Shown here: piece by piece, positions 3,241 to 61,109 of the stretch
How positions within the stretch are numbered: the stretch's first letter is position 1
Layout: each line of letters starts with the position of its first letter
Origin: Gemmatimonadota bacterium
GTDB lineage: Bacteria > Gemmatimonadota > Gemmatimonadetes > Gemmatimonadales > GWC2-71-9
DNA: 64,000 nt
Direction of reading: 5' to 3'
NCBI GenBank assembly: GCA_009692185.1
Contig: SHZT01000001.1
Coordinates: 205,247 to 269,246, forward strand
Notes under the pieces: generated by a model
Databases searched by the model: none
Seen by the model: the letters and a program-made list of their open reading frames with translations, nothing else
What the model was told of the DNA's origin: nothing
Program-made: the position numbers and the translations under genes

Positions 3241-4797
3241 CTAGGCCTTCGCAGCCCGCAGCTTGCTGTGCCGGTAGCCGTACGCGAAGTAGACCACGAG
3301 TCCAATCGCCAGCCACACCCCGAAACGAACCCAGGTCACGAACGGCAACTGCACCATCAGGAACAGGCACGACACGATGGACAGGAGCGGAATGAGCGGC
3401 ACCCACGGTGCCCGGAACGGCCGCGCCCGGTCTGGGTCCTTGGCGCGCAGGATAAGGACGCCTGCCGCCACCAGCACGAATGCGAATAGCGTGCCGATGT
3501 TGGTGAGGTTGACCACCTCATCGATATTCGCGAACGCGGCAAAGATGGCGACGAGGACACCGGTGAGGATCGTGGTGACGTGCGGTGTACGAAACCGTGG
3601 ATGCACCCGCGCCGCCCACGGCGGCAGGAGGCCGTCGCGCGCCATGGAGAAGAAGATGCGCGGCTGGCCCAATTGGAATACCAGCAACACGGTTGTCATC
3701 GCCAGGACCGCGCCGAACGCCACGATGATCCGCGAGACGGCCAGCAGGGTGGGGTTTCCGCTGGCAAGATTCAGCGCCGTGAGGATAGGCTCCGCCGTGC
3801 CCAGCTGGCGCCAGTCGGTCATGCCGGTCATGACGACCGCCACCAGGATGAAGATGACGGTGCACACCACCAAGCTCATGATGATGCCGAATGGCATGTC
3901 GCGGCCGGGGTCCTTGGCCTCCTCGGCGGCAGTGGACACGGCGTCAAACCCGATGTACGAGAAGAAAATGATGGCTGCGGCAGCCTTGATCCCCGCGAAA
4001 CCGTTGGGGGCAAATCCGCCGAACTCGGTGTAGTTCGGAGGGTGAATCAGGGTGGCGCCTACCACGATGAAGAACAGCAAGATCGCCACCTTGAGCACGA
4101 CCATGATCGAGTTGGAAAACGCCGACTCCCGGATGCCGTAGACCAGGAGCACGGTGATGGCGAGCACGATAAGGACAGCCGGAATATTGAGGATGATGGG
4201 CAGGCCCGCGATATGCGGCGCCGAGGTGACGGCGCTGGCCAGGTCGAGTGTGCGAGCGTCCGTCGCCCCTGCGCCGGCCGCTGCCACAGCCTGAAACGCC
4301 GTCCGGTAGTCGGTCGTGAGCCACGCGGGAATGTGGATGCCCACGTCGGCCATGAGCTCGCGGAAATACCCCGCCCAGGAGATCGCCACGGCAATGTTGC
4401 CCACGGCGTACTCGATTATCAGGTCCCAGCCGATAATCCAGGCCACCAGCTCTCCAAACGATGCGTAGGCATAGGTGTACGCCGACCCGGAAATCGGCAC
4501 CATCGCGGCGAACTCCGCATAACACAGGGCCGCGAAACCGCAGGTGACCGCCGTGAGGACGAAGGACAGGACGATGGCGGGTCCCGCCCCGAGCCGGACA
4601 CCGGCCTCGCCCGCAATCGCCGTGCCCGTCGTCGCGAAGATACCGGCACCGATAATGCCACCGACGCCCAGCGCGGTGAGGTGCCACTTGCCCAGGACGC
4701 GCCGAAGGCCGCCCGTTGCGGTGTCCACCTCGGCTGTGAGCTGTCCTATGGTCTTTCGAGCAAAGAGCTGGGACACGAAACCTCCCGAAGTCGGCAC
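3241..4797 (-). CDS. APC-family amino acid permease (cationic amino acid transporter-like)
   Basis: 518 aa polytopic protein with a typical APC N-terminus (LRRVLGKWHLTALGVGGIIGAGIF) and the FSYIGFDAVSTAAEEAKDP segment. Confidence 0.85.
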   Translation of the reverse strand: MPTSGGFVSQLFARKTIGQLTAEVDTATGGLRRVLGKWHLTALGVGGIIGAGIFATTGTAIAGEAGVRLGAGPAIVLSFVLTAVTCGFAALCYAEFAAMVPISGSAYTYAYASFGELVAWIIGWDLIIEYAVGNIAVAISWAGYFRELMADVGIHIPAWLTTDYRTAFQAVAAAGAGATDARTLDLASAVTSAPHIAGLPIILNIPAVLIVLAITVLLVYGIRESAFSNSIMVVLKVAILLFFIVVGATLIHPPNYTEFGGFAPNGFAGIKAAAAIIFFSYIGFDAVSTAAEEAKDPGRDMPFGIIMSLVVCTVIFILVAVVMTGMTDWRQLGTAEPILTALNLASGNPTLLAVSRIIVAFGAVLAMTTVLLVFQLGQPRIFFSMARDGLLPPWAARVHPRFRTPHVTTILTGVLVAIFAAFANIDEVVNLTNIGTLFAFVLVAAGVLILRAKDPDRARPFRAPWVPLIPLLSIVSCLFLMVQLPFVTWVRFGVWLAIGLVVYFAYGYRHSKLRAAKA

Positions 4798-15135: not shown

Positions 15136-17724
15136 CTACAAGCTCGGCACCACAGATGCGGCGGCCGGAGCTGCATTGGTCTTCTCAACCCAGGCGAGGA
15201 AGTCGCCCACATCGTACGCGCTGCTCTTGTTCCCGATGAGGTCCAGGTAGCGCATGTCATCGGTGGAAAGGGTCGCGGTCGTACCCAGAAGGGCGCCGAG
15301 CACGTTGGCCAGGGTCAGGCTTGGCTCGGTGGCGTTTATCGATACGGCGGCGTCCGCGGTCTGCACGCCGGACGTGGCGCGCACGTTGGCGGTGAATGCC
15401 CCCGACACCGTCGAGGTACCGCTCACTGAACCATCTGCCGCGAGCGTCACGCCGGCTGGGAACGCCCCACCCACCTGGCTCCACGTGTAGAGGCCCGTGC
15501 CGCCCGTCGCGGCGAGCGTCGTCGTGTACGGCTTCCCCATGACCGGCGCGAGTGCGCTCGGGGCCGTGACCGCGAGCGAGGGCGAGAACACGGCCACCAC
15601 GGCGTACGGCTTCCCCATGGTCAACACGAGCGGGTTGGTCGTGACGTTGGTGTCACCGGTCCAACGCTCGAACACCTGCCCGGCGCCGGGCGTCGCGGTC
15701 AAGGTCATGCCGCTGGCCTTGGTGACGAATGTGCCGTTCGTATGGTCCACCGACGGGGATGAGGCAACCGTGCCGGTCCCCTGGACGGTGGCCTGGACTT
15801 TGACCTTGGTCGCGACGACCGCGGAAATCGAGTCGCCCGCGAAAGTACCGTTGATGTTGTGCGTCCGGAGCCCAGCATCCGACCAGGAAACCCAGACGAA
15901 CTGCGTCTTGCCGTCAGCCGTGGTCTGGGCGGAGTCCATGGAAATGCTGTGAATCGAACCGTCGGTGAAGAGGCCGGTGAACCGACTATAGGCCGTGCCG
16001 TCCACCTTCACCTGGGCGGTAGTGTCGGCCGCGCGGATCACTGTGACGCCACCGAACGCAATCTGGAAACTCATCGCGCCATCGGGGGCGACCTGGGTGA
16101 TATTGGAGATTTCCCAACCGATGAACGTGGAATCGACATGCTTGTTCGCGGCCGGCGTTGTGTTGAACGAGAACCGATTGTTGGGGAGCGAATCCACACC
16201 GTTCGCGCTGTAGCCGGGGAACAGGTCGCCCGCGTCGCCGCGGTTGGCGGCCGTCTCGAGCTGTTTTCGGTTGTCGGCTTGAACGAGCGTGAGGCCGTGG
16301 AATGTACCCGCGTTCATCTGGTTGACGCTCTTGCTCTGCTGGATCTTGGCCGAGTCCACCTGCCAGATAGCAAGCCCGCCATGGCAATTGGTGGGGAAGA
16401 CGAGGCCGCTCTTTGTGCACACGGTGCGGATGAGGGCCGTGTCGGACTGGGAGCCCTGCCGGTTCTCCAGCAGGAAGTACTCCTTCCGCGTGTTCGTGCC
16501 CTGTACCCGCACCAGGAACGTCGTGTCGGACGTCGGGGCCGGCCCGAACGAGTATGTGCCGTTGACGGTGATCGGACGGACCGTCACCCAGCCCAACTCG
16601 TTCAGTGACCATGCTTCCATGCGGGAGGGCGACGCGCCGCTCGACTGGTTGCCGCTCCCCATGAGGCCCCAGTTCCCGATGCCTTCGGATGACTGTTGAG
16701 TGTCGTACAGGTCCGGGAGCCCGAACGCGTGCCCCGACTCGTGTGCCGCCGTGCCGATGGACATGATCTGCGTCGGCTGGTTGCACCCCTGGGAACCGCC
16801 CACGCCCGACTGGAGCGTATAGTCGCGGAAACGGATGTTGCCGAACCCGGCCTTGGCACTGAGGTCGTTGGTGGTAACCGACATGGTCGAGCGGTGGGAC
16901 CACAGGTGCTGGTTGGTCGAGCTCCGGCAGGCGCCATCCAGCTCCGAGTGAATGAATATGGCCATGTCCACGAAGCCGTCATCATCACCCGAGTTGGCAG
17001 TACCGTCCGGGCCGTCATTGTCGAACTGCGAGAAGTTCACAGTCCCGTCGTACTTGGCCACCGCCTGCGTCAGTGCGTTCCGCATGGCGGTCGTCGCCGT
17101 GCCGCTCCAGATACCGTTGCAGTTTGAGTTGCCGTACGGGTTGGACCCGGAGCAGTTCTGCCCGCCCGTGTAGGTCCCTTCCGGACTCGCGAGCGTATCC
17201 CACCCAATAACGACGCCCTGGAGATCCAGCAGACCGTTGGACATCTGGTTGTAGAAGCTGCGAATCGAGTACGGCGTGCCGTAGGGGAATCCCGTGGGCG
17301 CCGTCGCGCTGAACAGGAGCTGGTTGTACTTGGACGTGTCACCCGCGCCGGCCGCGAGACCGGGCGCCCGGGCACTGTCGGCAAAGGAGAACAGAATAGC
17401 GGGAATCTTCTTTACGCCGCTCACCGCGGCGGGCGCGGGCACGGTACTGGGCGCCGCCATCGCCGCGTTGAGTCCCCGCCAGTTGCCCTGCTGCATGAGC
17501 AGGCGCCGCTGGGCCGCGACGCGGCGGGCGAGGACTCGCCACGCGCCGTCGGGGGCGAAGTCGAACACATCACCGTCGGCGTTGCGCAGGACCTCGGGCG
17601 CACGCTGACCCTGCGCGTGCGCGGAGGCAGGGACCGCGAGCGCGGCGACCGCGAGAAGGACGACAAGACGTGCCAGTGTGCGATGCATCACAACTCCCGC
17701 AGGCACTTGAGATAACGTCACCAA
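15136..17724 (-). CDS. M6-family (immune inhibitor A-like) secreted zinc metalloprotease with C-terminal Ig-like and dockerin-like regions
   Basis: HESGHAFGLPDLYD zinc motif and a signal peptide. The likely start is MHRTLARL at 17688. The C-terminal segment reads LDLIGNKSSAYDVGDFLAWV. Confidence 0.85.
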   Translation of the reverse strand: MVTLSQVPAGVVMHRTLARLVVLLAVAALAVPASAHAQGQRAPEVLRNADGDVFDFAPDGAWRVLARRVAAQRRLLMQQGNWRGLNAAMAAPSTVPAPAAVSGVKKIPAILFSFADSARAPGLAAGAGDTSKYNQLLFSATAPTGFPYGTPYSIRSFYNQMSNGLLDLQGVVIGWDTLASPEGTYTGGQNCSGSNPYGNSNCNGIWSGTATTAMRNALTQAVAKYDGTVNFSQFDNDGPDGTANSGDDDGFVDMAIFIHSELDGACRSSTNQHLWSHRSTMSVTTNDLSAKAGFGNIRFRDYTLQSGVGGSQGCNQPTQIMSIGTAAHESGHAFGLPDLYDTQQSSEGIGNWGLMGSGNQSSGASPSRMEAWSLNELGWVTVRPITVNGTYSFGPAPTSDTTFLVRVQGTNTRKEYFLLENRQGSQSDTALIRTVCTKSGLVFPTNCHGGLAIWQVDSAKIQQSKSVNQMNAGTFHGLTLVQADNRKQLETAANRGDAGDLFPGYSANGVDSLPNNRFSFNTTPAANKHVDSTFIGWEISNITQVAPDGAMSFQIAFGGVTVIRAADTTAQVKVDGTAYSRFTGLFTDGSIHSISMDSAQTTADGKTQFVWVSWSDAGLRTHNINGTFAGDSISAVVATKVKVQATVQGTGTVASSPSVDHTNGTFVTKASGMTLTATPGAGQVFERWTGDTNVTTNPLVLTMGKPYAVVAVFSPSLAVTAPSALAPVMGKPYTTTLAATGGTGLYTWSQVGGAFPAGVTLAADGSVSGTSTVSGAFTANVRATSGVQTADAAVSINATEPSLTLANVLGALLGTTATLSTDDMRYLDLIGNKSSAYDVGDFLAWVEKTNAAPAAASVVPSL

Positions 17725-17950: not shown

Positions 17951-19153
17951 TTGGACACCCAGATCCTGCAACACGTCGCGCTGTTCGACAAATGCAAGAA
18001 TTTCACCAAGGCCAAGGAGATCCAGGCCTCGGGCCTGTACCCCTATTTCAAGCCGATTTCCGAATCGGAAGACACCGTCGTCGTCATTGACGGGCAGAAG
18101 AAAGTCATGATGGGGTCCAACAACTACCTGGGCCTCACCCACCACCCAAAAGTCCTGGAATCGGCCAAGGCGGCCCTCGAGCGGTACGGCTCGGGCTGCA
18201 CCGGCAGCCGGTTCCTGAACGGCACGCTCGACCTGCACGAAATGCTGGAGGCCCGCCTCGCCGAGTTCTTCGGCAAGGAAGCGGCGCTGGTGTTCTCCAC
18301 CGGGTACCAGGCCAACCTGGGGCTCATCTCGTGCCTCGTAGGCCGGGGCGACGTTGTCCTGCTCGACAAGCTGGACCATGCGTCCATCGTGGACGGCGCG
18401 AAAATGTCGTGGGGCGATACCCAGCGGTTCAACCACAACGACCTGGCCCAGCTCGAGCGCCTGCTGCAGCGGAACGCCGACAAGGGCACGATGATCATCG
18501 TGGACGGTGTCTACTCCATGGAGGGAGACATCGCCGACGTGCCGGCCCTGCTCAAGCTGGCCCAGCGCTACAGCGCGGCACTCGCGATTGACGATGCCCA
18601 CGCCACCGGGGTCCTGGGCCCCCGCGGAGACGGCACGGCGGCGCATTTCGGCCTCACCGAGGAAGTAGACCTCGTGGTCGGGACGTTCTCCAAGTCCCTG
18701 GCCTCCATCGGCGGGTTCGTGGCGGGCACCGAAAACGTCATCCACTACCTCAAGCACAACTCCCGGCCGCTCATCTTCACGGCCGCGTTGCCCCCCGCCA
18801 ACACCGCGGGCGTGCTGGCGGCGCTCGAGGTCATGATTGCCGAGCCGCATCGCCGGGACCAGCTCTGGGAAAACACCCGGCGCCTCCAGGACGGCTTCCG
18901 GAGCTTGGGGTTCGACATCGGCCCCACCCAGACGCCCATCGTGCCGGTCCTCATCGGCGACATGACCAAGACGTTCCTCTTCTGGCGGAAGCTGTTCGAC
19001 GCCGGGGTGTTCACCAACCCGGTCGTCCCGCCCGCCGTGTCCGCCACCGAGTGCCGGCTCCGCACCAGCCTCATGGCCACGCACACGGCCGAGCAGATCG
19101 ACTTCGCGCTCGATACGTTCGCACGCCTCGGCAAGGAGCTGGGGGTCATTTGA
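17951..19153 (+). CDS. Alpha-oxoamine synthase (PLP, class II aminotransferase), serine palmitoyltransferase-like
   Basis: [41 protein letters not shown] and the PLP-Lys context GTFSKSL. Overall collinear with bacterial SPT/KBL/BioF as I recall them. Confidence 0.85.
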
Positions 19154-20280
19154 GCCCGCCGGTGGTCGTCCGGCCGATCACTTCGGCCGGCGACCTCGAA
19201 CGATTTATCGCGCTGCCGTACGACTTGTTCCGTGGGGACCCCGTGTGGGTCCCCCAGTTGCGTATGGACGTCCGCACCATGCTGTCCCGCACGAAGAATC
19301 CGTTCTTCCAGCATTCCGAGGCGGAGTACTTCCTGGCCGAGCGGAATGGGGAAGTCGTGGGCCGCATTGCGGCAGTCCACAACCGGGCGCACATCGACTA
19401 CTACAAGGACACCACCGGCTTCTTCGGCTTCTTCGAGTGCGTGGACGACCAGGTGGTGGCGAATGCCCTGTTCGCCGCCGCGGCGGCGTGGCTCACGCAA
19501 CGGAACCTCACCGTCATGCGCGGGCCCACGTCCTTTTCGACCAACGACGAGTGCGGTCTCCTAGTCGACGGCTTCGACACGCCACCCACATTGCTCAACC
19601 CGCACAACCCGGCGTACTACGTGCCGCTGGTCGAGCGTGCCGGGTTCCTGAAGGCGAAGGACATGTACCAGTACTGCATCGCGGTGACCGACCAGGATAC
19701 CGCCGTGCCGGAACGGCTGCTCCGCGGCGCCCAGATCGTGGCCGAGCGCAACAACCTCACCGCGCGCAAGCTCGACATGAAGCACTTCAAGGAGGAAGTG
19801 AACCGCATCAAGCAGATCTACAACTCGGCCTGGGACAAGAACTGGGGGTTCGTCCCGCTGACCGAGGCCGAGATCGATCACCTGGCCAAGCAGCTCAAGC
19901 CCATCGTGGTGCCCGACGGGGTGGTGTTCATCGAGAAGGAAGGCCAGCTCGTCGGCTTCGCCGCCGCCCTGCCCGACTTCAACGTCGCCCTGAAGAAGAA
20001 TCCCTCGGGGAAACTCTTCCCCGGCATCCTCAAGGTCCTCTGGCACGGGCGCAGGATCAAACGCGGGCGTATCCTGCTCCTCGGCCTCCTCCCGGAGTAC
20101 CGGAAGACCGGCGCGGAAGTCCTGCTGTACAAGTGGCTCTGGGAGAAGGGCTACAAGCTTGGCTTCCGCTGGGCGGAAGCCGGCTGGATCCTCGAAGACA
20201 ACACCCCGATGAACAACGGGCTCACCCACATGGGCTTTCAGCGCCACAAGACGCTCCGCCTCTACGACCGCGCACTGTGA
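19150..20280 (+). CDS. Large GNAT-fold N-acyltransferase-like protein (~376 aa)
   Basis: TTG start in a TTGA overlap with the upstream stop. C-terminal GNAT-like core ([18 protein letters not shown]...[11 protein letters not shown]). Confidence 0.65.
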
Positions 20281-21281
20281 AAGTCTTCGTCACGGGTGGA
20301 ACCGGCTTCCTCGGTTCACACCTGGTCGAAGCCCTCCTCGCCCGGGGCGATGACGTCGTCTGCCTGGTGCGGGACCCCGGCAAGGTAGACCGGGTGTTCG
20401 ACAAGCAGCGCCCCCGTTTGGTTGCCGGAAATCTCAACGACGTGGCCGCCCTCGAAACCGGCGCCGGCGGCGCGGACCTCGTGTTCCACGTCGCCGGGCT
20501 CATCGCCGCCGTTTCCCGCGCCGATTTCTTCAACGCCAACGCCGAGGGCACGAGGCGGGTGGCGCGCGCGGCGGCGAAGGTGGCGCCGAATCTCCAGCGA
20601 TTCGTCTATGTCAGCAGCCAGGCCGCATCGGGACCCTCGCGCCGCGGCGAGGCGCTCACCGAGTCCGCCAAGCCCAACCCGCTCACGGAATACGGCCGCA
20701 GCAAGCTCGCCGGCGAAGAGGCCGTGCGGGAATGCACGTTCCCCTGGACGATCGTGCGCCCGCCGGTGGTCTACGGGCCGCGCGACACGGAAGTCCTGCG
20801 GATGTTCCGGACCGTGCGCATGGGCGTCGCCCCCATTTTCGGCGACGGCAAGCAGGAACTCTCGGTCATCTACGTCGAAGACCTCGTCACGGCCCTGCTG
20901 AAGGCTGCGGCCAGCCCGAAGCCGGGCGCCACCTACTTCGCCGCGCACCGGCAGGTGCTCACCAGCCGGGATTTCGTGTCCGCGATCTACCACGCCGTGC
21001 GAGGTACCGAACCGCAGAAGTCGGCCCGCGCCTCGGGTCCGTTCCTCCTGCCGATTCCCAGCATGGTGGCCAGGGGAGCGCTCTGGATGACCGAGAAGGC
21101 CGCGCAGCTCACCGGCAAGCCGACGCTCCTCACGCCTGACAAGGCGAACGAGTTCCTGGCCGAGGCGTGGGTGTGCTCGTCGGCCGCGCTGGAACGCGAC
21201 ACGGGGTGGGTGGCGCAGTTTGACCTGGGGACGGGACTCTCCCGGACCGCCGCGTGGTACCGCAGTCACGGGTGGCTATAG
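20277..21281 (+). CDS. NAD-dependent epimerase/dehydratase-family reductase (extended SDR)
   Basis: GTGA overlap with the upstream gene. Rossmann motif VFVTGGTGFLGSHLV and the catalytic YGRSK (YxxxK). Confidence 0.8.
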   Translation: MKVFVTGGTGFLGSHLVEALLARGDDVVCLVRDPGKVDRVFDKQRPRLVAGNLNDVAALETGAGGADLVFHVAGLIAAVSRADFFNANAEGTRRVARAAAKVAPNLQRFVYVSSQAASGPSRRGEALTESAKPNPLTEYGRSKLAGEEAVRECTFPWTIVRPPVVYGPRDTEVLRMFRTVRMGVAPIFGDGKQELSVIYVEDLVTALLKAAASPKPGATYFAAHRQVLTSRDFVSAIYHAVRGTEPQKSARASGPFLLPIPSMVARGALWMTEKAAQLTGKPTLLTPDKANEFLAEAWVCSSAALERDTGWVAQFDLGTGLSRTAAWYRSHGWL

Positions 21282-21291
21282 CAGCTGCGAC

Positions 21292-22368
21292 TCAGTGCTT
21301 GTGCTCGGCAGGTTTCTTCTTGTCAGCCGGCGGGGCCATGATCACCGCCATCGTTCCGGTCACTTCCCGCATGTAATGCTTGCGATCCATCACGTACAGG
21401 AACTCCTTCACGTCCGTCGCGAGCCACTGTTCACCGCTCGACGGCAGGAATATTCCCGCCACCACGCCCATCCCGCCTGACGGCATCGTGTCGGGCTTCG
21501 GGTTCTGATAGTCCACGGTCACCCGGTACAGGTGTGACGTGTCCACCTTCATGCCCAGGTTCTTGAGGAAACTGCTCGTGGTCAGGCTGTTCACGTTGCC
21601 ATTGTCATCCATGTAGGGCGTGGCGTCGAAAATGAGCTTGCCGGTCGTGGCATCCTGGAAGCGGAGCCGCGTGGCGTACTCGTGCAGGTGCCCGCCCATA
21701 ATCAGGATCTTGCCGTTCACCGCCGGTTTCCCCTCCCACGAGCGGCTCGACGCCCCGGGTGGCAGGTCCCATGACTTGTCACCGAAGGGAAATGCCGCAT
21801 CCACCTGGAACGGCTGGATGGGAAAGAGCGGCCAGGGGCGTCCGGTCTTCTGGTACGTCATGGTGAACCGCACGGTCGCGCCGTGGTAGGCGGTGCTCGT
21901 GGGGTTGTGCAACATGGCGGCAACGACCAGCCGGTCTCCCTTGTTCACCGGGAGGCCAAACAGAAACCAGGGCATGGCCTGGTCCCCGGTTTCGCCTCCC
22001 GCCGCGGCCACGCGCCGCGAAATGGGGAGAAAGAGCTCGCGGTGATCCGGATCGATGAAGTTGAGGTGATGTACGACCTGGTTGGGAACTGTTTTCCCAT
22101 CCTGGTCCACCACGTCGTAGCTGAACCCCGTGAGGTAGCCGGTCATGGGGAAGCTCACGGTTTCGACCGGCGGCAAGATGCCGCCATGTGCGCCGTGATG
22201 CTCGCCCATGACGGGCAGCTCGATGGGCCCGATCAGGATGGTAAACCGGCTTTGCGCGTCGTCGTTGACGACGCGGACGGTTTGCGCGGCGGCCGCAGAC
22301 GGCGCCAGCACGAGAAGAAGCGTGAAGAGATTCTTGCGCGTCATTGTGACAGAAGAGAAGTGCTTCAT
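21292..22368 (-). CDS. Secreted hypothetical protein with a copper-monooxygenase (PHM/DBH)-like His/Met pattern
   Basis: Signal peptide, then spaced VVHHLNF, H (MLHNP or AYHGATV), GGHLHEY (HxH) and a later GGMGV. This mimics the HH..H / HxH..M arrangement of type II Cu monooxygenases. Fold assignment is inference only. Confidence 0.7.
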   Translation of the reverse strand: MKHFSSVTMTRKNLFTLLLVLAPSAAAAQTVRVVNDDAQSRFTILIGPIELPVMGEHHGAHGGILPPVETVSFPMTGYLTGFSYDVVDQDGKTVPNQVVHHLNFIDPDHRELFLPISRRVAAAGGETGDQAMPWFLFGLPVNKGDRLVVAAMLHNPTSTAYHGATVRFTMTYQKTGRPWPLFPIQPFQVDAAFPFGDKSWDLPPGASSRSWEGKPAVNGKILIMGGHLHEYATRLRFQDATTGKLIFDATPYMDDNGNVNSLTTSSFLKNLGMKVDTSHLYRVTVDYQNPKPDTMPSGGMGVVAGIFLPSSGEQWLATDVKEFLYVMDRKHYMREVTGTMAVIMAPPADKKKPAEHKH

Positions 22369-22371
22369 GGC

Positions 22372-22512
22372 CTAGGGCGCAACCGTCAGCGTCCCGACCA
22401 TGCCCATGAGCTCGTGCGGCTGACAGGCGTACGCGTAGGTACCCGCCGGGGCGGGCTTGTCGCCCCCGCACGCGAGCGCGAGGAGGCTGATTCCCGTTAA
22501 GATTCGTTTCAC
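22372..22512 (-). CDS. 46-aa lipoprotein carrying only the C-terminal cupredoxin ligand loop
   Basis: GGAGG RBS 6 nt upstream of GTG 22512. Lipobox LALACGG, then YAYACQPHELMGMVGTLTV, which matches the YxCxPHxxxGMxGxxxV type-1 Cu loop. The stop lies 3 nt before the next gene's ATG. Confidence 0.5.
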   Translation of the reverse strand: MKRILTGISLLALACGGDKPAPAGTYAYACQPHELMGMVGTLTVAP

Positions 22513-22608
22513 CTGTGACCTCCGGTCGGACGTGAGCCCTGCATCGTGCGTCGAAGAAAGATAACGGACGCCTTGATTCTTGAAGCAAATCGTCGAGCTT
22601 GCTACGCG

Positions 22609-22992
22609 ATGCAATGCCGTGCCCTGCTTGCACTTGTGACTGTCGCGTCCAGCCCGACTTGTCTGTCGCAGAACAAACTCGCTCATCCAGTACCGCTGGC
22701 GGTCATGGACGGCCGCGTCGTGTCGTTCGAGACCGGTGAGCCAATTCCCCACGTCGAGGTGTGCGTGTTTGGCAGCGACACGACTTGTGTGCGCAGTGAT
22801 GCCGCGGGCCGTTACCGCGCCCGCGTCACCCCCGGGACGGTCACGGTACGGTTTCGGACACCAGGGCTTCCTCTCGCGCTGGTGCGGAACATCGAGATCG
22901 CCGCGACGGCACCCGGGTCGGTCAGCTGCGCGATGACCGGCCGGATCGGCCTCTCTGAGGAAACGTCCTGCCTGCCGGTGCGCACCCAGTGA
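22609..22992 (+). CDS. Secreted carboxypeptidase-regulatory-like (CarboxypepD_reg) domain protein
   Basis: Signal peptide MQCRALLALVTVASS, then GRVVSFETGEPIPHVEVCVFGSDTTCVRSDAAGRYRARVTPGTVTVRF. Confidence 0.55.
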   Translation: MQCRALLALVTVASSPTCLSQNKLAHPVPLAVMDGRVVSFETGEPIPHVEVCVFGSDTTCVRSDAAGRYRARVTPGTVTVRFRTPGLPLALVRNIEIAATAPGSVSCAMTGRIGLSEETSCLPVRTQ

Positions 22993-23753
22993 AGCCCGCC
23001 GTTCCCGACTGCCAGTCGATGGGATCCCATTGCCGGGAGCTGCCGGTCCTGCTCCGCGTGGCCGAACTGAGCGAAGACGACGGCCCGTTCCGGGACATGA
23101 TCGGGACCTGGCTCATGGGACACGTCGAGAACCTGGACTTCGGCACTCCACGGGTGTTGGGAGATCGCGTGGTGGTGGACACGACGATCCACGCCGAATG
23201 CCGGTACTTCCAGGCCGATGGTCCCTCGTTCCGGTGTCTGGCCCATGGCTTCCGGGGGGCGTTGCCCGACGAGGCCCGGCCGACGGAGCAACCGTTTATC
23301 GCCAACGGCACGGTCACACTCATGCAGGACGACCGGGTTCAGACTGTCGCCCTTTCGGCCCGCGCGAAACCCAGCCGCGCCCTACCCACACTCGACGTGA
23401 ACCCCTGTCTCGGGGCGCCGTGCCGTACGGCGGACAACGTGCAGGGCGCGGCATGCTGCCGCGACCTCACGCTCGAGGTGATCATCCCCGCCTGGAATAC
23501 CGAGACGGAGACCCTGCTGGAAACACGGCAGACGCCCTACGTGACCAAGGTCGAGCGGGTCAGCGAAGACATCGTCGAGTGCGAGGTGATCTCTGCTTGC
23601 GGGTACCTCGGGGCCGACGGCGTGGCGTGCGGGTTGCACGACCTCGAGCGCGCGGACGGTTCACCGGCCAAGCCGGCCATCTGCTCCGACTGGCCTGACC
23701 TCGACGAAGACTGCGACTGGCACCCGGGCTGCCGCCTGGTGGAGAAGGCATGA
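22989..23753 (+). CDS. Cysteine-cluster protein, C-terminal half YkgJ/UPF0153-like (putative Zn/Fe-chelating)
   Basis: GTGA overlap upstream and ATGA overlap downstream. Cys patterns CLGAPCRTADNVQGAACC and CGLHD...KPAICSDWP; 17 Cys in total. Confidence 0.6.
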   Translation: MKPAVPDCQSMGSHCRELPVLLRVAELSEDDGPFRDMIGTWLMGHVENLDFGTPRVLGDRVVVDTTIHAECRYFQADGPSFRCLAHGFRGALPDEARPTEQPFIANGTVTLMQDDRVQTVALSARAKPSRALPTLDVNPCLGAPCRTADNVQGAACCRDLTLEVIIPAWNTETETLLETRQTPYVTKVERVSEDIVECEVISACGYLGADGVACGLHDLERADGSPAKPAICSDWPDLDEDCDWHPGCRLVEKA

Positions 23754-60773: not shown

Positions 60774-61109
60774 TTAACTCACGACGACTTGGCCCTGCAT
60801 CCCGGCATGGATGGTGCACAAGTAGAGGTACGTTCCCGCGACCGTGAACTGCCGGTCGAACTGCCCGTTGGTCTGGACGTCGGAACTGGACCCGCCGTCG
60901 CTGAACTTCACGTCGTGCGGGTTGCTGCCATTCCACACCCACGACACGGGCTCACCCACCCTCGCGTTGAACGTCATGGGCGAGAACGAATTGTCGAGCA
61001 CCTGGATAACTGCGTTCGCAGCACCGGGGCTGCCGCACCCATTCCCCAGCAACATGAAGGCACCGAACAGGACGCACAGCACGCCACGCTTGATCATCCG
61101 CATTCGCAT
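60774..61109 (-). CDS. Cupredoxin (plastocyanin/pseudoazurin-like) lipoprotein
   Basis: Lipobox LLGNGC. Upstream His (NPHDVKF) plus the C-terminal loop YLYLCTIHAGMQGQVVV gives a full type-1 Cu ligand set. Confidence 0.75.
   Translation of the reverse strand: MRMRMIKRGVLCVLFGAFMLLGNGCGSPGAANAVIQVLDNSFSPMTFNARVGEPVSWVWNGSNPHDVKFSDGGSSSDVQTNGQFDRQFTVAGTYLYLCTIHAGMQGQVVVS

Follow-up and report, generated by a model that had tools for sequence, protein, structure and literature searches.

The window analyzed here, a stretch of 64,000 nucleotides (nt) from a Gemmatimonadota bacterium (GenBank assembly GCA_009692185.1, contig SHZT01000001.1, positions 205,247 to 269,246), carries on its minus strand two adjacent genes: a small open reading frame (ORF) of 46 codons whose product ends in the manner of a cupredoxin and, immediately downstream, a large ORF of 358 codons for a secreted protein whose predicted fold is that of the copper monooxygenases PHM and DBH. 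We understand the pair as the remains of a cupredoxin gene next to the intact gene of a bacterial PHM-like copper protein, a reading to which we assign a probability of about 80%. The two ORFs and the elements at their 5' ends are:

22372..22512, minus strand: small ORF, 46 codons, GTG start at 22510-22512, TAG stop
22519..22523, minus strand: GGAGG Shine-Dalgarno-like site, 6 nt 5' of the GTG; also present in the related contig L062 (GGAGGTC(A/G)C(A/T)GGTG aligned in both)
21292..22368, minus strand: large ORF for a secreted protein with a predicted PHM/DBH fold, 358 codons; probable true start at the ATG at 22344 (350 amino acids)
22285..22344, minus strand: predicted Sec signal peptide MTRKNLFTLLLVLAPSAAAA, residues 9-28 of the 358-codon ORF

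The preliminary description of this locus had reported a small ORF with a GGAGG ribosome-binding site (RBS), a GTG start, a lipobox and the Cys-His-Met end of a cupredoxin, all of which is borne out. The product of 46 amino acids (aa), M/VKRILTGISLLALAC followed by GGDKPAPAGTYAYACQPHELMGMVGTLTVAP (in full M/VKRILTGISLLALACGGDKPAPAGTYAYACQPHELMGMVGTLTVAP), has a lipobox-like ALAC with Cys15, and its residues 23–44 match positions 77–98 of the 99 positions of the Pfam Copper-bind profile (PF00127) with 28.2 bits (E = 2.5e-6), above the gathering score of 21.2. The NCBIfam models for plastocyanin, pseudoazurin and halocyanin match the same stretch, and on these profile matches the similarity to cupredoxins is a matter of homology, not chance. 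A word-index homolog search with the 46-aa peptide found nothing that shared enough 5-residue words and is uninformative, as is a scan of 21150–22750 for promoter and terminator consensus sequences, which gave no match and carries little weight for this phylum.

The small ORF was also described as stopping 3 nt before the ATG of the large one. This is literally so (its TAG is followed by GCC and then by the ATG of the 358-codon ORF), but the real start of the large gene is most likely at 22344, giving a spacer of 27 nt, because the position of the upstream ATG (22368) reads CTG in L062, the identical protein is annotated by NCBI as 350 aa (P0001), and the homologs begin at the position of M9. 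The predicted signal peptide has neither a twin-arginine motif nor a lipobox, and a hydrophobic N-terminus ending in A-x-AQ is conserved in the homologs. The ratio of nonsynonymous to synonymous substitution rates (dN/dS) of the large gene against L062 is 0.15 and, judged from its sequence, the gene is intact.

Fold and candidate copper ligands of the large protein

The AlphaFold2 model of the large protein (45 homologs) is confident, with a mean predicted local distance difference test (pLDDT) score of 88.5 and a predicted template-modeling score (pTM) of 0.83, and consists of two beta-sandwich domains at roughly residues 31–175 and 185–310. In a Foldseek comparison with the PDB, ranks 1–15 were taken by rat PHM (E = 1.3e-9 to 1e-7, probability 1.0, template-modeling (TM) scores 0.41–0.53) and rank 16 by human DBH (4zel); by this comparison the model contains the two-domain double jelly-roll core found in PHM and DBH. 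The lower matches, from E = 4e-6, were the PM2 and PBCV-1 capsid proteins, GH172/DUF2961 and PNGase F-II, and this grouping of double jelly-roll folds agrees with the published one (PMC8812541).

More than 1000 homologs of the large protein were found, nearly all unnamed and mostly from Gemmatimonadota; an exhaustive profile search gave 1068 clusters (50% identity) at E ≤ 1e-3. Conservation counts for the wider family refer to 150 representatives of 50%-identity clusters. The candidate ligands and a His-containing tail lie at:

22066..22071, minus strand: codons of H100-H101, candidate counterparts of the PHM CuH ligands H107/H108; His in 132/135 and 135/136 wider-family representatives
21907..21909, minus strand: codon of H154, in the motif M-L-H-N-P, candidate third CuH ligand (PHM H172)
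21682..21690, minus strand: codons of H227-L-H229, candidate counterparts of PHM CuM H242/H244; conserved in 143/144 and 140/144
21469..21471, minus strand: codon of M300, in GGMGVV, candidate counterpart of PHM CuM M314; conserved in 132/135
21295..21306, minus strand: C-terminal E-H-K-H tail; an H-x-H end occurs in most homologs, and the AlphaFold2 pLDDT is below 50

A conserved HH, H, HxH, M pattern had been noted from the sequence of the large protein, and the six residues H100, H101, H154, H227, H229 and M300 are indeed invariant in the 45 homologs. The ligand spacing of 53/73/71 residues compares with 64/70/70 in PHM (H108, H172, H242, M314; positions and numbering checked against PDB 1sdw). 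Across the 150 representatives H100, H101, H227, H229 and M300 are 97–99% conserved, H154 being the exception among the six. At the level of sequence pattern, CuM is represented by H-x-H and a Met 71 residues downstream in domain 2. For CuH, HH100-101 is near-invariant throughout, and H154, 53 residues on, is invariant in the 45-sequence subfamily but His in only 74/141 of the wider family. Read in this way, a CuM-like site is family-wide and a CuH-like site with three His is confined to the subfamily of this gene. The family also has near-invariant Y281, R282, Y287 and N289. The large protein additionally contains a His-rich N-terminal loop, GEHHGAH, which like the HxH tail is poorly conserved in sequence; a role of the tail in metal capture is possible.

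The model and the conserved positions support, at the level of the fold, a protein with the fold and ligand layout of PHM and DBH (HH...H in domain 1, HxH...M in domain 2). By sequence it is not a member of the PHM Pfam families (PF01082 and PF03712). The likeness proposed in the preliminary description therefore holds for the fold (the 16 best Foldseek matches, probability 1.0) and for the ligand pattern, and fails for the Pfam profiles. In our view the most fitting description of the large protein is that of a new variant, from bacteria, of the architecture known from the non-coupled binuclear copper monooxygenases.

Several observations speak against so close a kinship. Pfam gave no match at E ≤ 1 for the large protein and none at E ≤ 10 for any of the 45 family members; searches of the PDB with the sequence alone and with profiles of 45 and 95 sequences did not find PHM or DBH, returning chance matches only, as did the NCBIfam search. 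When family profiles were compared with PHM by hhalign, the local probability was 1–4% and the global mode gave no sensible alignment; the non-significant local alignment pairs LPPG with IPPG and HLH with the HTH of PHM, which is consistent with the fold match and is not evidence for it. The Foldseek TM-scores for PHM and DBH are only 0.4–0.53, and the same list includes copper-free double jelly rolls (PNGase F, DUF2961, viral capsids), with much weaker E-values. Finally, H154 is His in only 74/141 members of the wider family, in which M152 (99/142) and N155 (124/141) are better kept.

These points leave room for the large protein to be no monooxygenase at all: it might bind or buffer copper in the periplasm, or be a non-redox double jelly roll (PNGase F-like, carbohydrate- or lipid-binding) in which the His and Met residues recur by chance. 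The GEHHGAH loop and HxH tail do resemble metal-buffering proteins, the fold class also holds PNGase F, DUF2961 and capsid proteins (PMC8812541), and both the missing sequence similarity to PHM and the variable third CuH His would fit. We nevertheless regard this as unlikely. The E-values of PHM and DBH are better than that of any other fold match by a factor of at least 1000; among the 150 representatives, the five polar positions with the highest conservation are precisely HH, HxH and M, in the order and spacing of PHM; and the poor conservation of the His-rich loop and tail suits accessory roles. PNGase F and DUF2961/GH172, which share Pfam clan CL0612 with PHM (PMC8812541), are likewise of the same fold class and mostly bacterial, but they have no HH/HxH/M set and their structural matches are weaker (E = 1e-4 versus 1e-9).

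Set beside PHM (1PHM/1SDW), DBH (4ZEL) and tyramine beta-monooxygenase, the large protein has in common a predicted two-jelly-roll fold, the sequence HH...H followed by HxH...M with similar spacing, and an extracytoplasmic location. It differs from PHM and DBH in having no detectable sequence similarity to them and in being bacterial and Sec-exported. It also contains no cysteine, whereas PHM is disulfide-rich, so that the eukaryotic disulfide framework of PHM and DBH is not matched. Further differences from PHM concern the third CuH His, which is not kept in the wider family whereas the Met two residues upstream of it is; the extra His-rich loop and HxH tail; the near-invariant Y281, R282, Y287 and N289; the substrate-anchoring residues that follow the Met ligand of PHM, which are not found at the same place; and the proposed reductant, which would be a cupredoxin rather than ascorbate.

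The prevailing view of PHM-type copper monooxygenases is that they are essentially confined to eukaryotes, and full-text searches of the literature gave no described bacterial PHM-like family and no cupredoxin partner for one. More than 1000 bacterial sequence clusters form a family with the predicted PHM fold and the ligand set, without annotation, and this large family makes the downstream gene the more interesting of the pair. The two copper sites of PHM and DBH lie approximately 11 Å apart; if active, the large protein would provide a Cys-free, easily expressed model for the cooperation of two sites at such a distance, and the relatives that keep the cupredoxin would offer a defined protein electron donor instead of ascorbate. 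According to the published survey of the fold (PMC8812541), PHM is found widely among eukaryotes, and PNGase F among bacteria.

A 303-nt deletion and repeated loss of the cupredoxin

The closest homolog of the large protein, P0002 (87% identity), is encoded on contig L062, where the gene order is that of the window: a Ser/Thr kinase, a Cys-rich 255-aa protein, a CarboxypepD_reg protein, a divergent 147-aa Copper-bind gene, the large gene and a convergent epimerase-family gene. The 147-aa protein is a plastocyanin-type cupredoxin lipoprotein (Copper-bind, 66 bits), and the L062 large gene begins 26 nt after its gene. When the DNA of L062 is aligned with that of the window at this spot, a single gap appears, in frame and exactly 303 nt long. 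Both flanks align well, the RBS, the GTG and codons 1–19 before the gap and the 27 final codons with the spacer after it:

22455..22456, minus strand: deletion junction, between codon 19 (AAG) and codon 20 (CCC); 101 codons (303 nt) missing relative to L062

In the L062 gene the pentamer GGCGC occurs at nt 58 and at nt 361, 303 nt apart and at both edges of the missing segment. The deletion may have been mediated by this microhomology, for which a GC-rich 5-mer is weak evidence.

What the small ORF retains is codons 1–19 (signal peptide, lipobox Cys15 and GGDK) and the final 27 codons, which encode the two C-terminal strands with Cys30, His33 and Met38. By comparison with L062, then, the small ORF is a decayed gene. 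Its ancestor, co-directional with the large gene and immediately 5' of it, coded for a plastocyanin-family cupredoxin, a lipoprotein of 147 aa, and a single in-frame deletion of 303 nt has brought signal peptide and lipobox up against the two final beta-strands. On the same alignment, the main part of the fold was lost with the deleted segment, and with it the invariant strand G-x-P-H-N-V-x-F, which bears the first His ligand. The complete Greek-key beta-sandwich of about 90–100 residues is absent from a mature part of approximately 31 residues (101/147 codons gone relative to the ortholog), and so is the full set of four ligands, Cys30, His33 and Met38 being present and the invariant PHNV His lying in the deleted segment. 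Two beta-strands cannot make a cupredoxin fold; since some 31 mature residues with only Cys, His and Met cannot form the cupredoxin sandwich, the product is most unlikely to be a blue-copper protein. With both the complete fold and the four ligands missing from its sequence, the small ORF should be called a remnant, and "mini-cupredoxin" is unsuitable as a name.

The set of loci examined comprises 61 from a scan of one genome per species together with L062 and a further locus, L063, making 63 in all. In 29/63 of these (L062 and 28 others) a full-length cupredoxin ortholog precedes the large gene and is read in the same direction. These orthologs are typical PF00127 members, with the PHNV His followed by C-x-P-H-x4-M, and in their alignment G-x-P-H-N-V-x-F, the strand of the first His ligand, is invariant in all 29 and falls wholly within the segment missing from the window. 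Relative to plastocyanin, pseudoazurin and amicyanin (PF00127), what is left in the window ORF is the final homologous stretch of 22 residues; 101/147 codons are gone, among them those for about six strands and for the first His ligand. The full-length orthologs differ from these proteins in being lipoproteins in which the lipid-anchored Cys is followed by a long linker of low complexity.

Elsewhere the gene has gone altogether. At L022 the same flanking genes are separated by merely 134 nt, with no cupredoxin between them, and the cupredoxin is also missing at L029, L012, L031, L034-L037 and L063 despite the same flanking genes. At L019, a metagenome-assembled genome (MAG) labeled Bacteroidota, a different stub (3601-3807) lies directly upstream of the PHM-like gene; it has no signal peptide and keeps only the last ~23 codons of the cupredoxin gene, ...EVGEYRYFCTPHEMLGMKATLKR, and it is a second, different and independent decay product of the same gene. 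From the loci without the gene and the different stub at L019 it follows that the cupredoxin has been lost repeatedly, and the window represents one stage of this loss. No second genome with the 46-aa form was found among the 63 related loci.

The preliminary description had preferred to see in the small ORF a minimal peptide for copper binding or delivery and had kept an internally deleted cupredoxin as its fallback, to be favored if relatives carried a full-length gene at this position. Such a gene is present in L062 and at 28 other loci, with one in-frame gap of 303 nt separating the two states, and it is the fallback that has prevailed. Two observations still tell against simple decay, namely that the remnant has an intact ORF, RBS, start and lipobox, and that its dN/dS against L062, 0.30 over the 46 retained codons, shows no free drift, so that the product may keep a residual function; 46 codons are too few for dN/dS to have power, and the value also spans the time before the deletion. 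Its gene ends, RBS and frame may persist through driving transcription or translation into the downstream gene, an in-frame deletion avoiding polarity. The alternative is that the 46-aa product works as it stands, the deletion having made a new function: a lipid-anchored Cys-His-Met loop that binds Cu(I) and passes copper or electrons to its neighbor. The in-frame junction, the three C-terminal ligands kept alongside RBS, GTG and lipobox, and a dN/dS that is not about 1 would accord with this, which we nevertheless consider quite improbable. The form is confined to the lineage of this genome, the closest relative having the full gene and other relatives the full gene or none; the stub at L019 is built differently in its upstream part and is without a signal peptide; the word-index search gave no 46-aa homolog; the gene caller of a second assembly left the 46-aa ORF uncalled; the dN/dS has the weaknesses just given; and two beta-strands, to judge from the known structure of the family, cannot build the cupredoxin fold.

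An error of assembly or binning, with 303 nt collapsed between short repeats and a full cupredoxin in the real genome, is the least credible explanation of all: the source is a MAG and GGCGC does occur at both edges in L062, but the identical large protein is found on four contigs of differing size and source with mostly the same neighboring proteins, a 5-nt repeat is far too short for collapse in de Bruijn assembly, the two sides of the junction meet cleanly and in frame, and a 124-kb ENA contig with the identical large protein has the same 264-nt gap from the CarboxypepD_reg gene to the large gene and no cupredoxin call, which makes a one-off assembly error unlikely. The small gene is an ordinary remnant, and it cautions that a well-formed short ORF with a good RBS and an above-threshold Pfam match can be the product of a deletion.

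Cupredoxin partnership and genomic neighborhood

Cupredoxins that partner enzymes within operons are well known, amicyanin (mauC) accompanying methylamine dehydrogenase and pseudoazurin or azurin accompanying nitrite reductase. The present pair resembles these in that a blue-copper gene adjoins one for a putative periplasmic redox enzyme, an arrangement suggestive of two proteins dedicated to electron transfer between them; it differs in that the electrons would go to O2 activation, in that the pairing is read from synteny, and in that the cupredoxin is dispensable, having been lost in many lineages including that of the window. In the working that we propose, the large protein would bind two separate copper ions and activate O2 at the His2Met site, and in the genomes that keep the cupredoxin this would reduce the His site in place of ascorbate. 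In the genome of the window another periplasmic donor would have to serve, perhaps the 111-aa cupredoxin at 60774-61109, a cytochrome or a small reductant.

That the cupredoxin is the electron donor of the PHM-like protein is a tentative proposal, possible rather than probable. The partnership rests on synteny in one clade, and in many of its loci other genes (a BTAD/AAA regulator, a Phosphodiest-family or a VTT/DedA gene) separate the cupredoxin and PHM-like genes; for divergent family members in other contexts no cupredoxin neighbor was found, all of which counts against a fixed pair. At L004 (2008-3876) and 11 other loci the intervening gene encodes a BTAD + AAA_16 (SARP/AfsR-like) regulator of 600–620 aa, and at others a Phosphodiest-family protein (about 480 aa) or a VTT/DedA membrane protein (about 235 aa). 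A 104-aa ORF upstream at L068, considered as a cupredoxin, was rejected, being a STAS-like C-terminus.

The full-length cupredoxin that had been noted at 60774-61109 is real: on the minus strand, it is an intact 111-aa lipoprotein (Copper-bind, 34.8 bits; Cupredoxin_1, 29.8 bits) with the loop CTIHAGM. It was rejected as an ortholog or paralogous replacement of the lost gene on account of its different ligand loop (CTIHAGM) and family signature (also Cupredoxin_1), and could act as an alternative periplasmic donor.

A PAP2 gene convergently adjoins the large gene in most loci, followed by epimerase-family, GNAT-like and serine palmitoyltransferase (SPT)-like alpha-oxoamine synthase genes. In the window (17951-21281, plus strand) three co-directional genes, convergent with the PHM-like gene, encode the alpha-oxoamine synthase, a GNAT-like protein of 376–409 aa and an NAD-epimerase-family protein. 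The best NCBIfam match of the alpha-oxoamine synthase is serine palmitoyltransferase, with 545 bits, below the cut-off of 640. The SPT-like/GNAT-like/epimerase order is conserved in most related loci, and we take the trio to be the same three families as those of the bacterial ceramide pathway (Spt, bCerS, CerR). Two fusions are of interest in the same connection. At L064 (5001-6674; P0200, 557 aa) the PHM-like protein is fused to a C-terminal PAP2 domain, and at L065 (5001-7163; P0149, 720 aa) an N-terminal GT2/GT21 glycosyltransferase is fused to the PHM-like part, within a cluster of glycosyltransferase, methyltransferase and sulfatase genes. Together the PAP2 gene, the SPT-like/GNAT-like/epimerase trio and the two kinds of fusion point weakly to a lipid or glycolipid of the envelope as substrate, and the family could be a sign of oxidative modification of the Gemmatimonadota cell envelope. 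A fusion of cupredoxin and PHM-like protein was sought among the long members of the family, and none was found. One of the family, P0121 (677 aa), matches the profile in two stretches and may be a tandem PHM-like unit or two fused gene calls.

Taken as a whole, the most far-reaching picture would be of a widespread and undescribed bacterial branch of PHM/DBH type, periplasmic and reduced by a dedicated lipid-anchored plastocyanin-like protein in place of ascorbate, that hydroxylates an envelope lipid or glycolipid, possibly a sphingolipid produced by the SPT-like/GNAT-like/epimerase genes next to it and processed by the adjoining or fused PAP2 enzyme, with the lineage of the window having lost the dedicated donor. 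We put this forward as speculative, and rather doubtful in its entirety.

Two other genes of the window deserve mention. Divergently upstream of the pair in about 40/63 loci, and at 22989-23753 on the plus strand in the window, is the gene of a 254-aa Cys-rich protein (APCRTADN..GAACCRDLTLEV; ISACGYL..DG..C) for which Pfam and NCBIfam gave no match. On the minus strand, 15136-17724 encodes a secreted protein of 862 aa with an HExxH-type motif (AAHESGHAFGLPDLYD) and a long repeat-like C-terminus, which from its sequence is probably a zinc metalloprotease.

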